Source: a virus. From it: 64,000 nucleotides of DNA. The position numbers and the translations under genes are program-made. Every line of letters begins with the position of its first letter. The stretch's first letter is position 1. This document shows positions 2,583-53,283 of the stretch, piece after piece. Below the pieces are notes generated by a model. That model was not told the DNA's origin and ran no database searches. It saw only the letters and a list, made by a program, of their open reading frames with translations. Location: the IMG/VR virus record IMGVR_UViG_3300005825_000057, positions 37,534-101,533 of that record; one strand, written 5' to 3'.

Positions 2583-3898
2583 TCCTTTTTGATTACATTT
2601 TTTAATTCATTGAGATTTCTGCCTGCTTTGCATGAAACTTTCAACTTTAAGCCGGGACATAACTCGCTTTCAGAAGAAAGTGCAAAGATCGCCTTTTGGT
2701 AAATTTCCTTCCAATTCTCCTTTGACGCATACACCATGTATCCATCGTGAACGTGGTAGGCCAATTTAGTCATAGGGACCAAGGCATAATAAAGTTGGAT
2801 TAGTTTTTCTAAGCAAATAATTGAGGCGGGAGATTGAACGCAAAAATTGCGAACTCTGTATTCTTTACCCTCGAAATAACGGCGTTTGCCAAATATGTCA
2901 TCAGCATAGCCTCTTTCTTTGACCTGATCTTGATAAGCCTGTATCCAAGCTAGAGCAGTCGGGAAAAGTTCATGGATTCGATTAACAATCGCTTCGGCTG
3001 TCGCTTCGGCAATTTTAAGTCTATCAGCCAGTGTATGGGCTGACATCCCATATATAATCGGCAAGAAGAATTTTTTGCATTTATCTCTTGCTTCTTTTAA
3101 ATTAGTCTGTTCACCAATTATTTTTTCATATAAAGCAAAATATACATCATTTGCTTTACAAAGTTCATTTAATAGCGGGTCTTTAGTCAACCACGCCAAC
3201 ATAAAAACTTCCATGCTGTTAAAATCAAAATACATGAAAAAATTCTCATGCAAAGGTTTTAACGCATTTTTCTTTTCCACGGTAAGGTTGTGGGGCACAT
3301 ACCCGTGGCTATAAGCCTTGTGACATAACAACCGCCCATTCTCTTGCCCATCAATTTCATAATAAGCATAAGCCTTATTTTCAATATCCGAATCGAGAAT
3401 GCCTACGGTTTCAAGATGTGGTAAAACCTGAGTCATCAAGGGCAGGTGAATATTTTTATATATCTTTGAAGATTCTTTGTAATTTGGCTCAGCAATAACT
3501 TTTTTCATTCGAGCTAGAGCTTCGCCCAAACTTTTTGGTGCTTGATTTTTAATTCCCAGATATGATTCGATTATTTTCAAATCAATAATTGCAGCATCAC
3601 AAAAAATTGGCTTTCCGGTTTTCGCCAAAATATAACTTGCGAAATTTTTCCAATTCCAAGTTACAATCCTAGCGCCCTTGGCCAAAAGGTTGAATCTCGT
3701 GATCTGACAGAAACGATTCAAATCCTCTTCCTCGTTAATTGCAAGCGAATAAGACTTTCCACCAGTTGCGTGAATATGCAAAAAATTCTCAGACTTTACA
3801 CTAAAGTCCAAGATTTCTGGATCAAATATAAAAAGACAATTTTGTGTTTCCAAATCTCCAAGAAACTCGGAAAACTTCAAGTAGTCCATTTGGCGCAA
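2579..3898 (-). CDS. polA: Family A DNA polymerase, shortened (thumb apparently missing)
   Basis: Motif A YFDFNSMEVFMLAW, motif B RDKCKKFFLPIIYG, NFCVQSPAS, motif C HVHDG. Confidence 0.85.
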   Translation of the reverse strand: MRQMDYLKFSEFLGDLETQNCLFIFDPEILDFSVKSENFLHIHATGGKSYSLAINEEEDLNRFCQITRFNLLAKGARIVTWNWKNFASYILAKTGKPIFCDAAIIDLKIIESYLGIKNQAPKSLGEALARMKKVIAEPNYKESSKIYKNIHLPLMTQVLPHLETVGILDSDIENKAYAYYEIDGQENGRLLCHKAYSHGYVPHNLTVEKKNALKPLHENFFMYFDFNSMEVFMLAWLTKDPLLNELCKANDVYFALYEKIIGEQTNLKEARDKCKKFFLPIIYGMSAHTLADRLKIAEATAEAIVNRIHELFPTALAWIQAYQDQVKERGYADDIFGKRRYFEGKEYRVRNFCVQSPASIICLEKLIQLYYALVPMTKLAYHVHDGYMVYASKENWKEIYQKAIFALSSESELCPGLKLKVSCKAGRNLNELKNVIKKE

Positions 3899-4169
3899 CC
3901 ATTTTAATCTTCGTGATCTTAGAAAAACCTAAAGTTAAGTATATCTTCGAGAATGTATTTAAGCAAGTACAATTTGCCAATTTATTCTCTTCTCTACTAT
4001 ACTCTATTCTTCTCTATTATTTATCCATAGGTACTTCTCTATGATATGCGCACACCGAGTCGCCGGTTAAGTTATACTTATTTAAAAGAATAAATACTAT
4101 AGAATAGATTTATTTCTTTTTGTTTTAGTAGAGGGAGAAAAACTTTCTACTAAAACACAAGCATAACAT

Positions 4170-4490
4170 AACCCTAGTCCATAGATTTCTCTATGGAGAG
4201 TCAGTGTACCCAATAAAAAATGCAGCAACCAAACCCAAGACTAGATCGCTTTCTCGTCAAAAAGCGAATGGCTTTTTTGTCTAATCTAGGCACACCTACA
4301 CTGCTGAGCCGGATGATTCTCGTGGATCAATCCTGATACCTGTCAAGGCGCTCGGTTTTTTCACCCAAATTTCTTCAAAGGGGTACTCGTGAATACTTTT
4401 TGAATGGGAAGAAACGGTAACTAGCCGTTTATACCTTTCGGTAATTTAGAGCTTCCATCTCAGTTTATTTTTAAGTAGAGTGACGAGGCT
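4170..4490 (-). ncRNA. Candidate structured RNA upstream of polA
   Basis: Non-coding stretch with serial hairpins on the minus strand (TACC-GAAA-GGTA, AAACGG..CCGTTT, TTCAAA..TTTGAA, CCATAGA-GAAA-TCTATGG) downstream of TTGAAC-N16-TATATT. Confidence 0.4.
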
Positions 4491-4573
4491 AGAGTCAATA
4501 TAGCAAAATATTTGCGTTGTTCAACCCCTGAATCATAAATATTTGGATTGATCTTTTCTGCGCATGAGGTACA

Positions 4574-5302
4574 ATGGCCAAAAATAAGAATCCCAATTTT
4601 TCTGAGGACGAAGATATGCCCCTTCTTGATGCAATTGCGTATTATGGCATGGATTCTATGGAATCTGCTGCCTATAAATTGAGCATTATCTGGGTAGAAA
4701 AGAGCAGAAAGTTTTTTCCTGATTACGAGCATGGCCGAATCAAAAAAGGTGATCCTCGAAAATCTTTGATGTTTAAAGTATGTTACAAATTAGTCCGAGA
4801 AACACAAGGGATTTTAAAAGAAGAAGATTATCCCTTGTACGTCCGGGCACAATTGGATATATTGAGAAATATAAACATGGGCAGTGAGCATCCCCTTATT
4901 GACCCAAACTGTCTTGTTGGCGAAAAAGCGTGGAAACGCTGGAAATTGTGGAAGAAAAAATATGATTGCGTTGTTGAACAAAAAGGCTTCAATATCAAAA
5001 TTACGATTTCATCCCAAAAAATCGTGGAAGCGCTTGAAAAAACAAAAGAGTTTATTTTCAAAACTCTCGGTGCCGAACCATCCATCGAACGCTACAAAGA
5101 AGCAATCATCAACAAAAATTTGTTCCGATGGATTAACTTTGGGAAAATCTCGCCGTATTATCTCGTTATGTCGCCGTACATTAAACAACTTGTGTCTGAA
5201 GAAGATTTGAAAAAAATCAATTTCGACCTTGAAGTTTATAAACCCTGTGCTACCAATGAAATATTGGCCCTTTTCAAAGAAAAGTTCAAATATGAGTTCT
5301 GA
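4574..5302 (+). CDS. Hypothetical phage protein
   Basis: 242-aa ORF, GAGG SD upstream. Confidence 0.7.
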   Translation: MAKNKNPNFSEDEDMPLLDAIAYYGMDSMESAAYKLSIIWVEKSRKFFPDYEHGRIKKGDPRKSLMFKVCYKLVRETQGILKEEDYPLYVRAQLDILRNINMGSEHPLIDPNCLVGEKAWKRWKLWKKKYDCVVEQKGFNIKITISSQKIVEALEKTKEFIFKTLGAEPSIERYKEAIINKNLFRWINFGKISPYYLVMSPYIKQLVSEEDLKKINFDLEVYKPCATNEILALFKEKFKYEF

Positions 5303-5314
5303 AAGAGTGTCAAA

Positions 5315-26515: not shown

Positions 26516-26597
26516 GGCCTCGTGGTGAAATTGGCATACACGCAAGTCTTAGGAACTTGTGCCGCAAGGCGTGTGGGTTCGAGTCCCACCGAGGCCA
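26516..26597 (+). tRNA. tRNA-Leu(UAG)
   Basis: Canonical class II, CAAGT-CTTAGGA-ACTTG. Confidence 0.95.
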
Positions 26598-29118: not shown

Positions 29119-29974
29119 AGAAAAATATTTTGTATGCGGTGTTTTGAAAAATAATGGTTTGCTTACCGGCTATACAAATGCGACTTGTCCTCTACATGCA
29201 GTAAGAATGCTTTGTGCCGCAAGAGGAATTACCGTAACTGAACTTGAAAGCTGGTCTTCTCACAATATTCGTATGTTTAACGATGCCAATGTTGAAGTTC
29301 CCACTTTTCACATGGTAGAAGCATGACTACTGACGAAGATTATTTGCGAAGAATGGCTGAGCGTGATTTACTCATGATTGAGGAAGGTCACGATATTGAA
29401 ACGTGTGGTATGTGTTATCATGCTTTTCTGTGGTCCGAAGTCGCCCGTGAAATGGTAGAAAAAGGCGATTTTGAAAATGGCATTTCTCGCTGGTCAGATG
29501 AAACCAGACGACGCTGGGAACAAACTAAATTCTTTAAATTATGGCAAGAAGAATCTGCGGCTGGTCGTGACCCACACAAAGCATTCGAGAATAAGGGATG
29601 GGAACCATGATGATTCCTCAAATCTATTGTATGATGAATAGTGGCAAGCCTTTGACGGATGAAGTTCGTCAAGTTCTTCTCATTAACGCCTGTGATATGG
29701 CCGAAATGGGAAATGAACAACAAAAGGTTAAGGGCCGAAGATACGAAGGTATTATCAAATCTAACTTGGAATCACTGTCTTACGCTGGGCTTAGCATAGT
29801 CATGTTTGAGGCCGACGTTATTTGTCCAGATATTGGGCCAACCAAAGTTCGATATGGTGTTCGTACTCAAGACCTAGATGAAGGTTTGCTTGCCCTTGGG
29901 AAGTGGGGTTCGCTTGCTGAATATATGGCCGCATGTGGTTATGAATCGCAGCGATTTAATCCTGAGTTGAACTA

Positions 29975-30256
29975 ATGACCAGATTGATGTATATTGAGAA
30001 TAAAGTAACAGGGGAAGCCCATATTGGGTTTGTTACTTTTTCAAAAACATACAAGACTGTTTATTACAAAGATAAAGAGCTTGCTAGAATTCCTAAAGGT
30101 GGAATCACCGGCAATCATTATGATGTAAAAACAGGCGAAGAGTATTGGATTTCTGGCCCCAAAAAACGGGGCGGTGATCGCTCCTACGAGCCAATTAACC
30201 TAATCATTGATGAAGATGCACGGGAAGAATATGAGCAACTTAAAAATAAAGCGTAA
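29975..30256 (+). CDS. Hypothetical protein
   Basis: MYIENK..TGEEYWISGPKKRGGDR. Confidence 0.65.
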   Translation: MTRLMYIENKVTGEAHIGFVTFSKTYKTVYYKDKELARIPKGGITGNHYDVKTGEEYWISGPKKRGGDRSYEPINLIIDEDAREEYEQLKNKA

Positions 30257-30521
30257 TTGTTTTTGTTGCGAAAAATCTATTGGACATGCTGGCCCTACGG
30301 ACGGCAAAGATAGTATCAGCAATCCACCAGATGATGCGACTTATTGGCAGACTCTCGGCAATTACGGCAGTACCGTATTTGATGGGGGAGAATTTACGGG
30401 CGAGCGTTTAGAAATGTTCGTTTGTGATTCTTGTTTAAAAGAAAAGGCTCATCTTGTTTATCATTATCGAGTTGTGCAACCTGTCGTTGTTGTTGAAGAT
30501 TTGAAAATATTTGATCCTCAT

Positions 30522-30798
30522 GGGTAGTTGGCTTAGAAGCAGCCATCTTTAATGAGTAACCGCCGTGTGGGAGTCTGCCTGCCTTCGGGCTAGTCCTTTG
30601 AGAACCATTAACTCCGTATAGGGCACCATTTAATTTATTTTGGTTGAGTAGTTCACTACGGGATAATTTGGCCACCGAAAGGGATCAATTTATCACTGAA
30701 ATATTTTAATTGAACCCTGCTCAAAGGAAGATGGGGAGTAACGGCTTAAAAAATCTCCTGTTAATGGCATGTGTAGTTTTTGGCGTAACAGCACGCCC
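30522..30798 (+). ncRNA. 23S rRNA H43/H44 (L11-binding domain) mimic RNA with structured insert
   Basis: GTTGGCTTAGAAGCAGCCATC at 30527-30547 and GCGTAACAGC at 30783-30792; closing GGGT/GCCC. Confidence 0.75.
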
Positions 30799-30810
30799 AG
30801 AGGTTTAAAT

Positions 30811-31560
30811 ATGTTTTTTTGGCCAAAATCAGCAGAACAATATCTAAACCCAATTCTAATTGCGCCAATAGAATGGCTAAGAGATGAATCGTTTGTTGAA
30901 ACTTTAATTTCAAACTGTGGGATCAATGCGGAGTATCAACTTCTTGAGTCTATTGGTATAAGTGATCGGGCTATGCCACAATATTTTGATGTCGATAAAG
31001 GAATGAGATTGTGGCAGTATCCAAAACAGTTTGCAAAATATCTTGTTTGGCTAAGTGATAAAAAGATTGAATCCTATCTTGAAATAGGCACGAGATATGG
31101 GGGTACATTTTTGGTAACGGTTGCTTATTTATCTCGTTTCAATCCGATAAAAGCTATAGCAGGAGTTGACCTTCTTGTAAGCGAAGAATTGTCTCTTTTT
31201 TCTCAAGAAAATATTGAATTTAGATATTTGGTTACCTCTACAGAAAGTGTAGAGTTTGCAGAATTGATTTATTCTCGGCAATGGGATTTAGTTTTTGTAG
31301 ATGGCGATCATTCAAATCCAATACTTCAAAATGATTTGGAGCTTGCTAAGAAAAATTCTCGTTTTGTTGCTTTACACGACATCGTGGATATGGGTTGTCC
31401 GCATGTAATGGAACTATGGCAATCTTTGAAAAAACAATATCAAAATGTAGAATTTATTGAACAATATACGGAGGTTTTTAACCGAACAGGTAAAAATCAT
31501 TTAGGAATTGGAATAGTCGATCTAAACAGAGGTTTAAAATGGATGAATCCTGTGGTATAA
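30811..31560 (+). CDS. Class I SAM-dependent methyltransferase
   Basis: YLEIGTRYGGT, DLVFVDGDHS, LHDI. Confidence 0.85.
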   Translation: MFFWPKSAEQYLNPILIAPIEWLRDESFVETLISNCGINAEYQLLESIGISDRAMPQYFDVDKGMRLWQYPKQFAKYLVWLSDKKIESYLEIGTRYGGTFLVTVAYLSRFNPIKAIAGVDLLVSEELSLFSQENIEFRYLVTSTESVEFAELIYSRQWDLVFVDGDHSNPILQNDLELAKKNSRFVALHDIVDMGCPHVMELWQSLKKQYQNVEFIEQYTEVFNRTGKNHLGIGIVDLNRGLKWMNPVV

Positions 31561-31704
31561 TCGAAGTGTGTGAAGGCTGTAAAAAGCACCCGGTCGAATA
31601 TGACGCTCCGGGCAATTGGTGTCGTTTCTGTTGGGTTGATTGGTGGCACGAAGACGACGATGCCGAAGGCAAACAAGAAACATTGAAAGAAATTGAGGAA
31701 AAAT

Positions 31705-32250
31705 ATGGACCCGTTCAAACCTCTTGATCTTCTCAATCAATATCTTGAAGACGATACCATCTTCAATCTTTTGCAAGATCGAAGTAATTGGGACAGCTTG
31801 ATTGTCAATCGTCGTAAACCCCATACATATCGAGTTTTCACTTATGTTGGGGAAAACAGAATTTGTTTGCATCGGTTTGATGTGTGTGATTTACACGAAT
31901 CGTTTGACCACCCGCATCCTTGGCCGGGAGCCTTTTTGCTTTTGAAAGGTTCTTACCGAATGAGATTAGGACGATCCCCAGACCGAGAATCACCGCCTGT
32001 AGCGGTTGCCGATCTTGTTTTAACTGAGGGGTCCGCTTACGAAATTTCTGATCCTTTGACGTGGCATTCGGTTACGCCGCTAGAAACAACATATACGATT
32101 ATGTTGAATGGTCCTACATGGGCAAAAGACGTTGCTCACAAAGATGTACGGACTACAAAAGGCAAAGATTTGGACAAAATGCCAGAAGATGAATTACTTG
32201 CTCATTTAAAAGTTTTCTCAGACTTGGAAATGGGATTTGGGCGAGACTAA
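31705..32250 (+). CDS. Cupin-like protein
   Basis: LHRF..DHPHPW..WHSV. Confidence 0.6.
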   Translation: MDPFKPLDLLNQYLEDDTIFNLLQDRSNWDSLIVNRRKPHTYRVFTYVGENRICLHRFDVCDLHESFDHPHPWPGAFLLLKGSYRMRLGRSPDRESPPVAVADLVLTEGSAYEISDPLTWHSVTPLETTYTIMLNGPTWAKDVAHKDVRTTKGKDLDKMPEDELLAHLKVFSDLEMGFGRD

Positions 32251-53064: not shown

Positions 53065-53215
53065 TGAAATTGTGATCGACTATGGCAATGTTAATATATG
53101 CCAATTGGGAGATTTGAAATTTCGTGTTGACAATTGGCGTAAAAAGTATAAAAAGAAAAAGGTTTGGCGTTCTATTGAAGAAGAATGGCACCCTACTGCC
53201 GAAGTGGTGGAATAG
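53039..53215 (+). CDS. Mini-gene: ribonucleotide reductase active-site-like fragment plus tail
   Basis: TNPCNEI..NICQLG then KKKKVWRSIEEEW. Confidence 0.5.
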   Translation: MKSLTNPCNEIVIDYGNVNICQLGDLKFRVDNWRKKYKKKKVWRSIEEEWHPTAEVVE

Positions 53216-53283
53216 GCAGACACAACGGACTTAAAATCCGTTGCTCCGTAAGGGGCGTGCGGGTTCAAGTCCCGCCTTCGGCA
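53198..53283 (+). tRNA. tRNA-Leu(UAA), isolated
   Basis: Canonical, ACGGA-CTTAAAA-TCCGT. Confidence 0.95.

Follow-up and report, generated by a model that had tools for sequence, protein, structure and literature searches.

Phage Elements That Resemble the GTPase-Associated Centre of 23S rRNA and Carry an Inserted Arm

Results

The Element and Its Neighbouring Genes

The window analyzed here is a stretch of 64,000 nucleotides from a 101.5-kb IMG/VR virus contig, and all coordinates follow the numbering of this window, which is not to be confused with the element that it contains. The 101.5-kb contig was estimated by CheckV to be about 21% complete, and the source phage should therefore be very large; the genome that hosts the element is that of a giant uncultured phage. 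The element occupies the entire gap between an ORF for a Cys-rich protein and a gene for a class I methyltransferase (Table 1), and the 5' strand of its closing helix overlaps the final codons of the upstream ORF. A structural model of the methyltransferase (pLDDT 90) had catechol and other small-molecule O-methyltransferases as its best PDB folds, with TM scores of about 0.5, which suggests a COMT-like class I fold with no sign of an RNA substrate. No relatives of the protein were identified in viral contigs, and there were no matches in NCBIfam and PHROGs.

The element begins with GGGTA (30522-30526), followed by the 21-mer GTTGGCTTAGAAGCAGCCATC (30527-30547) and then by TTTAATGAGT. The 21-mer was identical at all 21 positions to nucleotides 1059 to 1079 of the E. 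coli 23S rRNA, as seen both with BLAST and at an E. coli locus, and the 5' part of the element matched inside the annotated 23S rRNA in all 5,426 E. coli genomes searched with BLAST. The segment GCGTAACAGC (30783-30792) has the same nucleotide as GCGTAATAGC of the E. coli H44 hairpin at 9 of the 10 positions, and the ACGCCC motif on the 3' side ends at position 30798. The equivalent of A1067 is A30535, and A30526 pairs with U30548. The inner 4 bp of the closing helix have UGGG (30521-30524) as their 5' strand; after H44, the order is GCGUAACAGC-ACG-CCCAGAGG, and the helix, in which one A is bulged out, is 17 pairs long at its full extent.

Table 1. Features of the element and of the adjacent genes (window coordinates)
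Feature	Coordinates	Strand	Basis or remark
Cys-rich ORF upstream (106 aa), no match to a family	30207..30527	+	Stop codon TAG 30525-30527 inside the element
Closing helix, 5' strand (equivalent of the top of H42)	30507..30524	+	Predicted duplex with 30796-30812, -20.9 kcal/mol; 8 closing-helix pairs covary in the family
287-nt RNA delimited by the head-to-tail junction	30513..30799	+	One 213-nt contig from run X2; both ends possibly up to 2 nt further right
H43 mimic: U, A, 21-mer 30527-30547 (23S 1059-1079), U30548	30525..30548	+	21/21 versus E. coli 23S
UUAAU turn (1082-1086) and GAGU (1087-1090)	30549..30557	+	Comparison of family junctions
Arm inserted between U1090 and G1091	30558..30778	+	Base stem AAC 30558-30560 : GUU 30776-30778
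UUUG linker, arm to H44	30779..30782	+	UUUG in 51/60 unique family arms
H44 mimic GCGUAACAGC (1091-1100) and ACG (1101-1103)	30783..30795	+	9/10 versus E. coli; A1095 equivalent is A30787
Closing helix, 3' strand	30796..30812	+	Holds Shine-Dalgarno GAGG 30800-30803 and reaches downstream AUG 30811-30813
Class I SAM methyltransferase (Methyltransf_24, COMT-like fold)	30811..31560	+	Pfam E 7e-06

The original prediction of a free-standing H43/H44 copy in a phage was borne out by these identities and by the Rfam search, in which neither an LSU match at the element, even at E ≤ 10, nor flanking rRNA was found. The two halves had been placed about 230 nt apart in sequence without rRNA likeness; no similarity to 23S rRNA was indeed detected in the insert (30558-30782), which is 225 nt long. 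Rfam had also been expected to recognize no known ncRNA or intron family, which was correct also at relaxed E-values, and to give local LSU matches at the two ends, which it did not do at this element. Across the window and 20 family loci, searches at gathering and relaxed thresholds returned just tRNAs and weak local LSU matches on the mimic itself, and Rfam 15 contains no model for the element.

A Family of Elements in Phage Genomes

The exact 21-mer was present in 94 IMG/VR contigs, 2 of which carry further rRNA. In the other 92 contigs the similarity to rRNA was limited to 21 to 40 nt and did not extend past H42-H44; the element is neither a piece of genuine 23S rRNA nor an assembly chimera with the rRNA of the host. 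Of these 92 contigs, 79 could be parsed fully into the same split architecture, and the remaining ones were mostly cut by the contig end or contained an H44 variant. A second scan with a pattern for the 3' half yielded at least 82 further loci, so that both halves are present in at least 166 viral loci in IMG/VR. When the 3'-half pattern was searched for in genome assemblies, the H43 core was also located upstream in 11 among the first 120 matches. Those of the 11 that had titles were mostly MAG contigs, and such contigs filed under bacteria may be phage DNA.

The family plan consists of a closing helix of free sequence, GGR, 1 to 2 pairs flanking the H43 core, a turn of five bases and GAGU, followed by an insert of 45 to 338 nt, the H44 hairpin and ACR, with the 3' strand of the closing helix as the last part. 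The arm is always located between U1090 and G1091; its base is paired, and UUUG links it to H44. The copy in the window has the H43 core, defined as GUUGGCUUAGAAGCAGCCAUC or a near variant with covarying flanking pairs, in its exact form (30527-30547). The NUAAN turn followed by GAGU is present as UUAAU-GAGU (30549-30557), and the TTTAATGAGT junction was also found in 2 other loci of the first set, L032 and L074. The arm at 1090/1091 is likewise present, with a 3-bp AAC:GUU base and UUUG (30779-30782), and downstream of it come the H44 hairpin GCGUANNAGC, ACR, and the 3' half of the closing helix.

The whole element, used as a query against GenBank phages, gave no match at the default E-value, and the copies in these genomes were retrieved with a 45-nt query at E ≤ 10. 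Cultured carriers, in which the copies are unannotated, include Pseudomonas phage pf16, with a copy between the genes for tRNA-Asn and tRNA-Pro, Cronobacter phage GAP32 (JN882285.1, at about 289.5 kb), with a copy between two CDSs, and Aeromonas phage 4_4572 (MK813943.1), with a copy before the gene for tRNA-Met. The same query matched unannotated DNA in XacN1, Serratia phage BF and others. In pf16 (KU873925.1; L329:692-886), an unannotated gap of 253 nt holds a full member with a CC-N6-GGUAAGG arm module. No description of a phage RNA family that mimics the GTPase-associated centre was found in the literature; the family is thus undescribed in the literature found, and is defined here from its loci.

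Genes for tRNAs were located within 2 kb of the element in 65 of 93 loci, on the same strand every time. The spacers between the element and the adjacent tRNA gene were mostly 0 to 9 nt on either side, and tRNA processing would therefore release a discrete RNA; in the arrays, the element fills a tRNA slot. The copy in the window is atypical. It lacks the same-strand place in or beside a tRNA array, a trait that is common in the family without being universal (the GAP32 copy, too, is flanked by CDSs), and is located between two ORFs, 3.9 kb from the nearest tRNA gene; its closing helix is also extended, to 17 pairs, over the Shine-Dalgarno sequence and part of the AUG of the methyltransferase gene. 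The tRNA genes of the window (22707-26597 and 53198-53283) numbered 12 with Rfam at the gathering threshold and 17 with ARAGORN; all are on the plus strand and many have long variable arms. There was no consistent family of neighbor proteins across the loci; the proteins encoded nearby were homing endonucleases, a CCA-adding enzyme and small proteins of unknown function.

It was also noted that the H43 core occurs without the subsequent GAGU junction in L079:4409-4429 (minus strand), L261, L271, L298, L299, L305, and L328, which may be relics or a different arrangement. Furthermore, one annotated 23S rRNA gene in E. coli NIPH17_0020 (L097; NZ_AP024560.1 2230180-2233038) reads ATTTAAAGCGTAATAGC; this copy is 2,859 nt long and has four H44 bases missing (GAAA or AAAG, at about 1087-1090), which may reflect a variant operon or an assembly error.

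Covariation and Conservation of the Predicted Fold

Covariation was examined in 57 distinct cores. In the closing helix, the eight innermost base pairs were formed in 46 to 55 of 56 to 57 cores, with several Watson-Crick types each, and the 1058:1080 pair was of Watson-Crick type in all 57, with 4 pair types. The turn occurred in the variants UUAAA, CUAAG, and AUAAU, in which 1082:1086 is altered on both sides, while GAGU was near-constant across the family. The 1090:1101 pair is U-A in the family versus A-U in E. coli, and in locus L050 an A1091-U1100 pair replaces G-C. The H44 loop had the variants GUAAUA, GUAGCA, GUAACA, and GUAGUA, which vary at 1096 and 1097, and rare forms with A1095C and U1094A were also present. 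Covariation among phage homologs had been proposed as a check of the predicted structure, and it was found in the closing helix (8 pairs), 1058:1080, 1082:1086, and the base stem of the arm.

Since the first set of loci had been gathered through the H43 sequence, the conservation of H43 was judged from 118 distinct sequences gathered via the 3' half only. In these sequences U1060, G1063, C1072, and C1075 were invariant, and G1059, C1064, U1066, A1069, G1071, A1073, G1074, and A1077 were nearly invariant. Changes were seen at A1067 (kept in 90%), G1068 (85%), and A1070 (84%). U1061 was frequently an A, the change that stabilizes the isolated 58-nt domain of E. coli. In established crystal structures of the 58-nt domain, the conserved set includes positions of the compact fold recognized by uL11, namely the U1060-A1088-A1077 contact and the base triples of G1071 and C1072; A1067 and A1095 are exposed, and it is with these bases that factors and thiostrepton make contact. 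As judged from the sequences, the conservation pattern favors a fold that would bind uL11 over the bases that would contact factors.

The folding energy was no better than that of shuffled sequences for the whole element (z 0.04) or for the arm (z -0.42), and the unconstrained minimum-energy fold is uninformative because it disrupts the rRNA-like fold. The sequence and the comparison of the loci show that the two end regions jointly form one self-closed domain, a copy of the GTPase-associated centre of 23S rRNA with H43, H44, and the top of H42. With the centre itself (E. coli 1051-1108, the 58-nt uL11/thiostrepton domain) the element shares H43, identical at 21/21 positions, and the H44 hairpin, identical at 9/10; 1057-1058:1080-1081, the 1082-1086 turn, A1088, and 1090:1101 are kept or altered on both sides, and the positions that form the tertiary fold are invariant across the family. 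Unlike the centre, the element is a separate phage gene in which a closing helix of free sequence replaces H42, a large arm with UUUG is inserted at 1090/1091, A1101 takes the place of U1101, and A1067, G1068, and A1070 are variable.

Presence in RNA Libraries and Mapped Ends

Part of the window was contained in four estuary metatranscriptome runs from four studies, here called X1 to X4, with X3 and X4 containing small shares of its sequence words. The evidence consists of assembled contigs of depth 2 to 4, which indicate the presence of an RNA rather than its level, strand or absence; neither the small shares in X3 and X4 nor the uncovered flanks are taken here to speak for absence or for a habitat. 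Within 29900-31900, the RNA contigs covered just 30402-30799, and the flanking genes had no contig cover there. The sole other RNA signal in these 2 kb was an unrelated contig from run X3, with a depth of 16.8, at the start of ORF 31693-32250 (31709-31877). The element had been proposed to be a transcribed RNA, and it is indeed present in RNA libraries, in all four runs. Contigs from X1 to X4 extended from the 5' core into the arm, reaching 30574-30662, and a contig from X2 extended from the arm (30699) into the 3' core; none of the contigs skips the arm.

One contig of 213 nt and depth 3.9 from run X2 reads 30699-30799 and then 30513-30624, with no letters between and with 2 ambiguous positions. 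This head-to-tail junction was seen in a single contig from a single run. The corresponding pattern in DNA, with the 3' half, a short gap, and the 5' half, had 0 matches in 2.9 million viral DNA contigs, which makes a tandem DNA copy unlikely. The junction therefore points to either a circular RNA of 287 nt or an end-to-end template switch by the reverse transcriptase, and under either reading the RNA ends at 30513-30515 and 30799-30801. Both ends fall inside the predicted closing helix, which would be a striking coincidence if the junction were an artefact. Cuts by RNase III and bulge-helix-bulge cuts at the mapped ends were considered and rejected, since the 5' overhang of about 8 nt fits neither.

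That the RNA is covalently circular, with 30799 joined to 30513, is a tentative proposal that we consider possible but doubtful: the ring would be exonuclease-proof and would serve as a uL11-bound decoy of the GTPase-associated centre. An ORF of the RNA-ligase family PF09414 (11368-12081, 237 aa, E 8e-24) encodes a candidate enzyme, as judged from its family assignment, and no gene for RtcB was found in the 101.5-kb contig. If true, a circular RNA that mimics rRNA would be a kind of phage counter-measure so far undescribed, and this may be the first case.

The Inserted Arm

The arm in the window is 221 nt long. Among 60 unique arms in the family, the positions of the base stem were paired in 60, 59, 55, and 44 arms, with many pair types, and UUUG preceded H44 in 51. 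Such pairing corresponds to a three-way junction within H44. A hairpin module, CC-N6-GGUAAGG with a GNRA or UAAN cap, was found in one third of the arms, and there was no similarity between the family arms and the rest of the 23S rRNA.

The original prediction placed a pseudoknot in the insert, and its parts are present: helix A (30594-30602 with 30720-30728) is an exact match of 9 bp, helix B (30605-30612 with 30760-30767) is an exact match of 8 bp that crosses helix A, and UUCG occurs at 30584 and GAAA at 30677 and 30698. However, the pair probability in the nested ensemble was 0.9 for helix A and 0.08 for helix B. The two helices belong to rival nested folds that differ by 1.3 kcal/mol, and they are therefore compatible only as a pseudoknot. 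When the insert was shuffled with its dinucleotide composition preserved, 8% of the shuffles had a 9-mer complement and 34% an 8-mer complement, and all three of the observed 8-mer matches were jointly reached in 4.6%, so the crossing helices are weakly above chance. No relatives of the window arm were found among all loci, and the pseudoknot is therefore without comparative support.

The boundaries of the insert resemble those of an intron, and we therefore examined whether it could be a self-splicing or otherwise excised intron, the product of which would be a contiguous rRNA-like domain of 60 nt. A U precedes the insert, G is its last base, and excision would leave H43 and H44 contiguous. 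Yet no match to group I or group II introns was found with Rfam in the window or in 20 family loci at E ≤ 1 to 10. Inserts can also be as short as 45 nt, and their ends pair in 60 of 60 arms and are followed by the conserved UUUG, which is the plan of an expansion arm. The RNA contigs span both boundaries between core and arm with no joint that skips the arm, although rare forms could be missed by contigs. These contigs show that the arm stays in the RNA. Hence, the suggestion of self-splicing is contradicted by the data, and we consider an intron to be largely refuted and very improbable. The group I class was rejected specifically, with no match to RF00028 (P3-P9 core) in the window or the 20 loci at relaxed E-values. 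Group I introns resemble the element in the U before the insert, the G at its end and the rRNA-like context; circles are possible for them, and one head-to-tail junction was seen here. Unlike them, the element has no core and no P1, the ends of its insert pair, the inserts go down to 45 nt, and the two termini met in the junction are those of the entire RNA rather than those of the insert.

Possible Functions of the Element

Our preferred explanation, held with moderate confidence, is that the element produces a stable ncRNA of about 287 nt (30513-30799), in which a copy of the uL11 domain would act off the ribosome as a sponge or decoy. The RNA would fold alone and bind host uL11 off the ribosome, as does the 58-nt rRNA domain in isolation, and the resulting uL11-RNA particle would imitate the stalk base. 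The particle could thereby withdraw uL11, or divert an agent that recognizes the site, for instance RelA or a Tre23-like defence toxin. In the copy studied here, the predicted closing helix also covers the ribosome-binding site of the next gene, and the ends may be ligated into a circle. The conserved architecture with its covariation, the tRNA-slot niche and the RNA contigs that retain the arm are all consistent with a decoy; on the other hand, withdrawal of uL11 would slow the phage's own translation too.

The toxin Tre23 ADP-ribosylates H44 at 1095-1098 (PMC8661411), and the diversion of a Tre23-like enzyme is for this reason a concrete alternative to uL11 withdrawal or a RelA block. In a separate scenario, which we regard as unlikely, the element would be primarily a decoy or pseudo-substrate for a toxin that attacks the GTPase-associated centre (a Tre23-like ADP-ribosyltransferase or a nuclease), so that the ribosomes are spared and the binding of uL11 is secondary. 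The variable positions 1096 and 1097 of the H44 loop lie inside the segment modified by Tre23, rare A1095C and U1094A forms occur, and the tRNA-array niche is common to the family. A parallel can be drawn to phage tRNA arrays, which replace cleaved host tRNAs. However, a substrate decoy would stop a catalytic toxin poorly unless the binding is tight, no such toxin or immunity gene was found near the family loci, and we know of no anti-phage system that targets the GTPase-associated centre. As a point against our preferred explanation, genes for uL11, RelA/SpoT, or toxin-related proteins were not found in the contig, which covers about a fifth of the genome.

Off-ribosome RNAs that imitate an rRNA site are also found in the leaders of ribosomal protein operons, such as L10(L12)4 (rplJL), L1, and S15, and the helix of the window copy covers a ribosome-binding site. 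Such leaders are partial and degenerate mimics in the mRNA of the protein's own operon, whereas the element is a near-exact copy of a full domain that usually stands alone in tRNA gene surroundings that lack genes for ribosomal proteins; here, the downstream gene is for the methyltransferase and there is no gene for uL11 in the contig. With regard to the niche, T4 species 1 and 2 are stable RNAs in a phage tRNA cluster. These and other phage tRNA-cluster RNAs (tRNA and Y-RNA mimics) share the tRNA slot and the would-be release by tRNA processing, but the fold of the element differs; T4 was not recorded among the matches to the element query in the phage collection.

The GTPase-associated centre is the site of uL11, thiopeptide antibiotics, RelA activation, and every translational GTPase, and few parts of the ribosome are as conserved or as well studied. 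A private copy of the centre, predicted to fold by itself and located mostly in tRNA arrays, is present in at least 166 phage contigs, with culturable phages included, which points to an unrecognized manipulation or protection of host translation by phages. The family also offers natural variants of a classic RNA-protein model with swappable arms. Phage pf16 is a ready experimental system, and pf16 and GAP32 allow testing at once.

The Methyltransferase Gene and a Relic of the Element

A homolog of the methyltransferase with 78% sequence identity was identified in two metagenome contigs, Ga0194121_10002164 (L098) and Ga0194128_10002911 (L099), in another neighborhood. The homolog ends with THG and a stop codon and is followed by a 30-nt relic of the element (3204-3233 in L098), which consists of CAYGGGTAG and the H43 hairpin only; CAYGGGTAG includes bases of the element that are not derived from rRNA. 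The homolog in L098 and L099 adjoins a homolog of window region 2868-5310. It seems that the methyltransferase gene was transferred jointly with part of the element. Since a phage with such a similar methyltransferase keeps only this relic, the copy in the window may be dispensable.

The copy could have no function in this phage, as a fragment captured from rRNA or as a relic in decay, and its orphan arm, its short and bulged closing helix and its location outside of the tRNA array would fit such a history, as would the 30-nt relic in the close relative of the neighboring gene. However, all features that define the family are intact in the window copy, it has the family signature of GAGU, UUUG, and ACR that is absent from 23S rRNA of the E. 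coli type, and the element is enriched over its flanks in the RNA libraries. We consider such a functionless relic or fragment to be very improbable.

The window copy could also be mainly a cis-regulator, in which folding, the binding of uL11 or cleavage at 30799/30800 would set the translation of the methyltransferase in the manner of ribosomal-protein leaders. The predicted helix of -20.9 kcal/mol (30507-30524 with 30796-30812) overlaps part of the AUG as well as the Shine-Dalgarno sequence GAGG, the 3' end mapped to 30799-30801 is located just before or within GAGG (30800-30803), and the methyltransferase homolog in L098/L099 is again found beside a piece of the element. Against this, most family members are located between tRNA genes with no downstream ORF, the relic in L098 is located after the gene rather than before it, and the small-molecule O-methyltransferase fold has no link to RNA. 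Such a role is in our view quite unlikely as the main function, and a decoy or sponge remains our preferred reading.

It was also noted that the motif CAGAGGTTTAAA occurs twice, at 30799-30810 before the start of the methyltransferase gene and at 31527-31538 before the ATG of the next ORF at 31539. The repeated motif may mark the borders of a gene cassette, or it may be a ribosome-binding site common to both genes.
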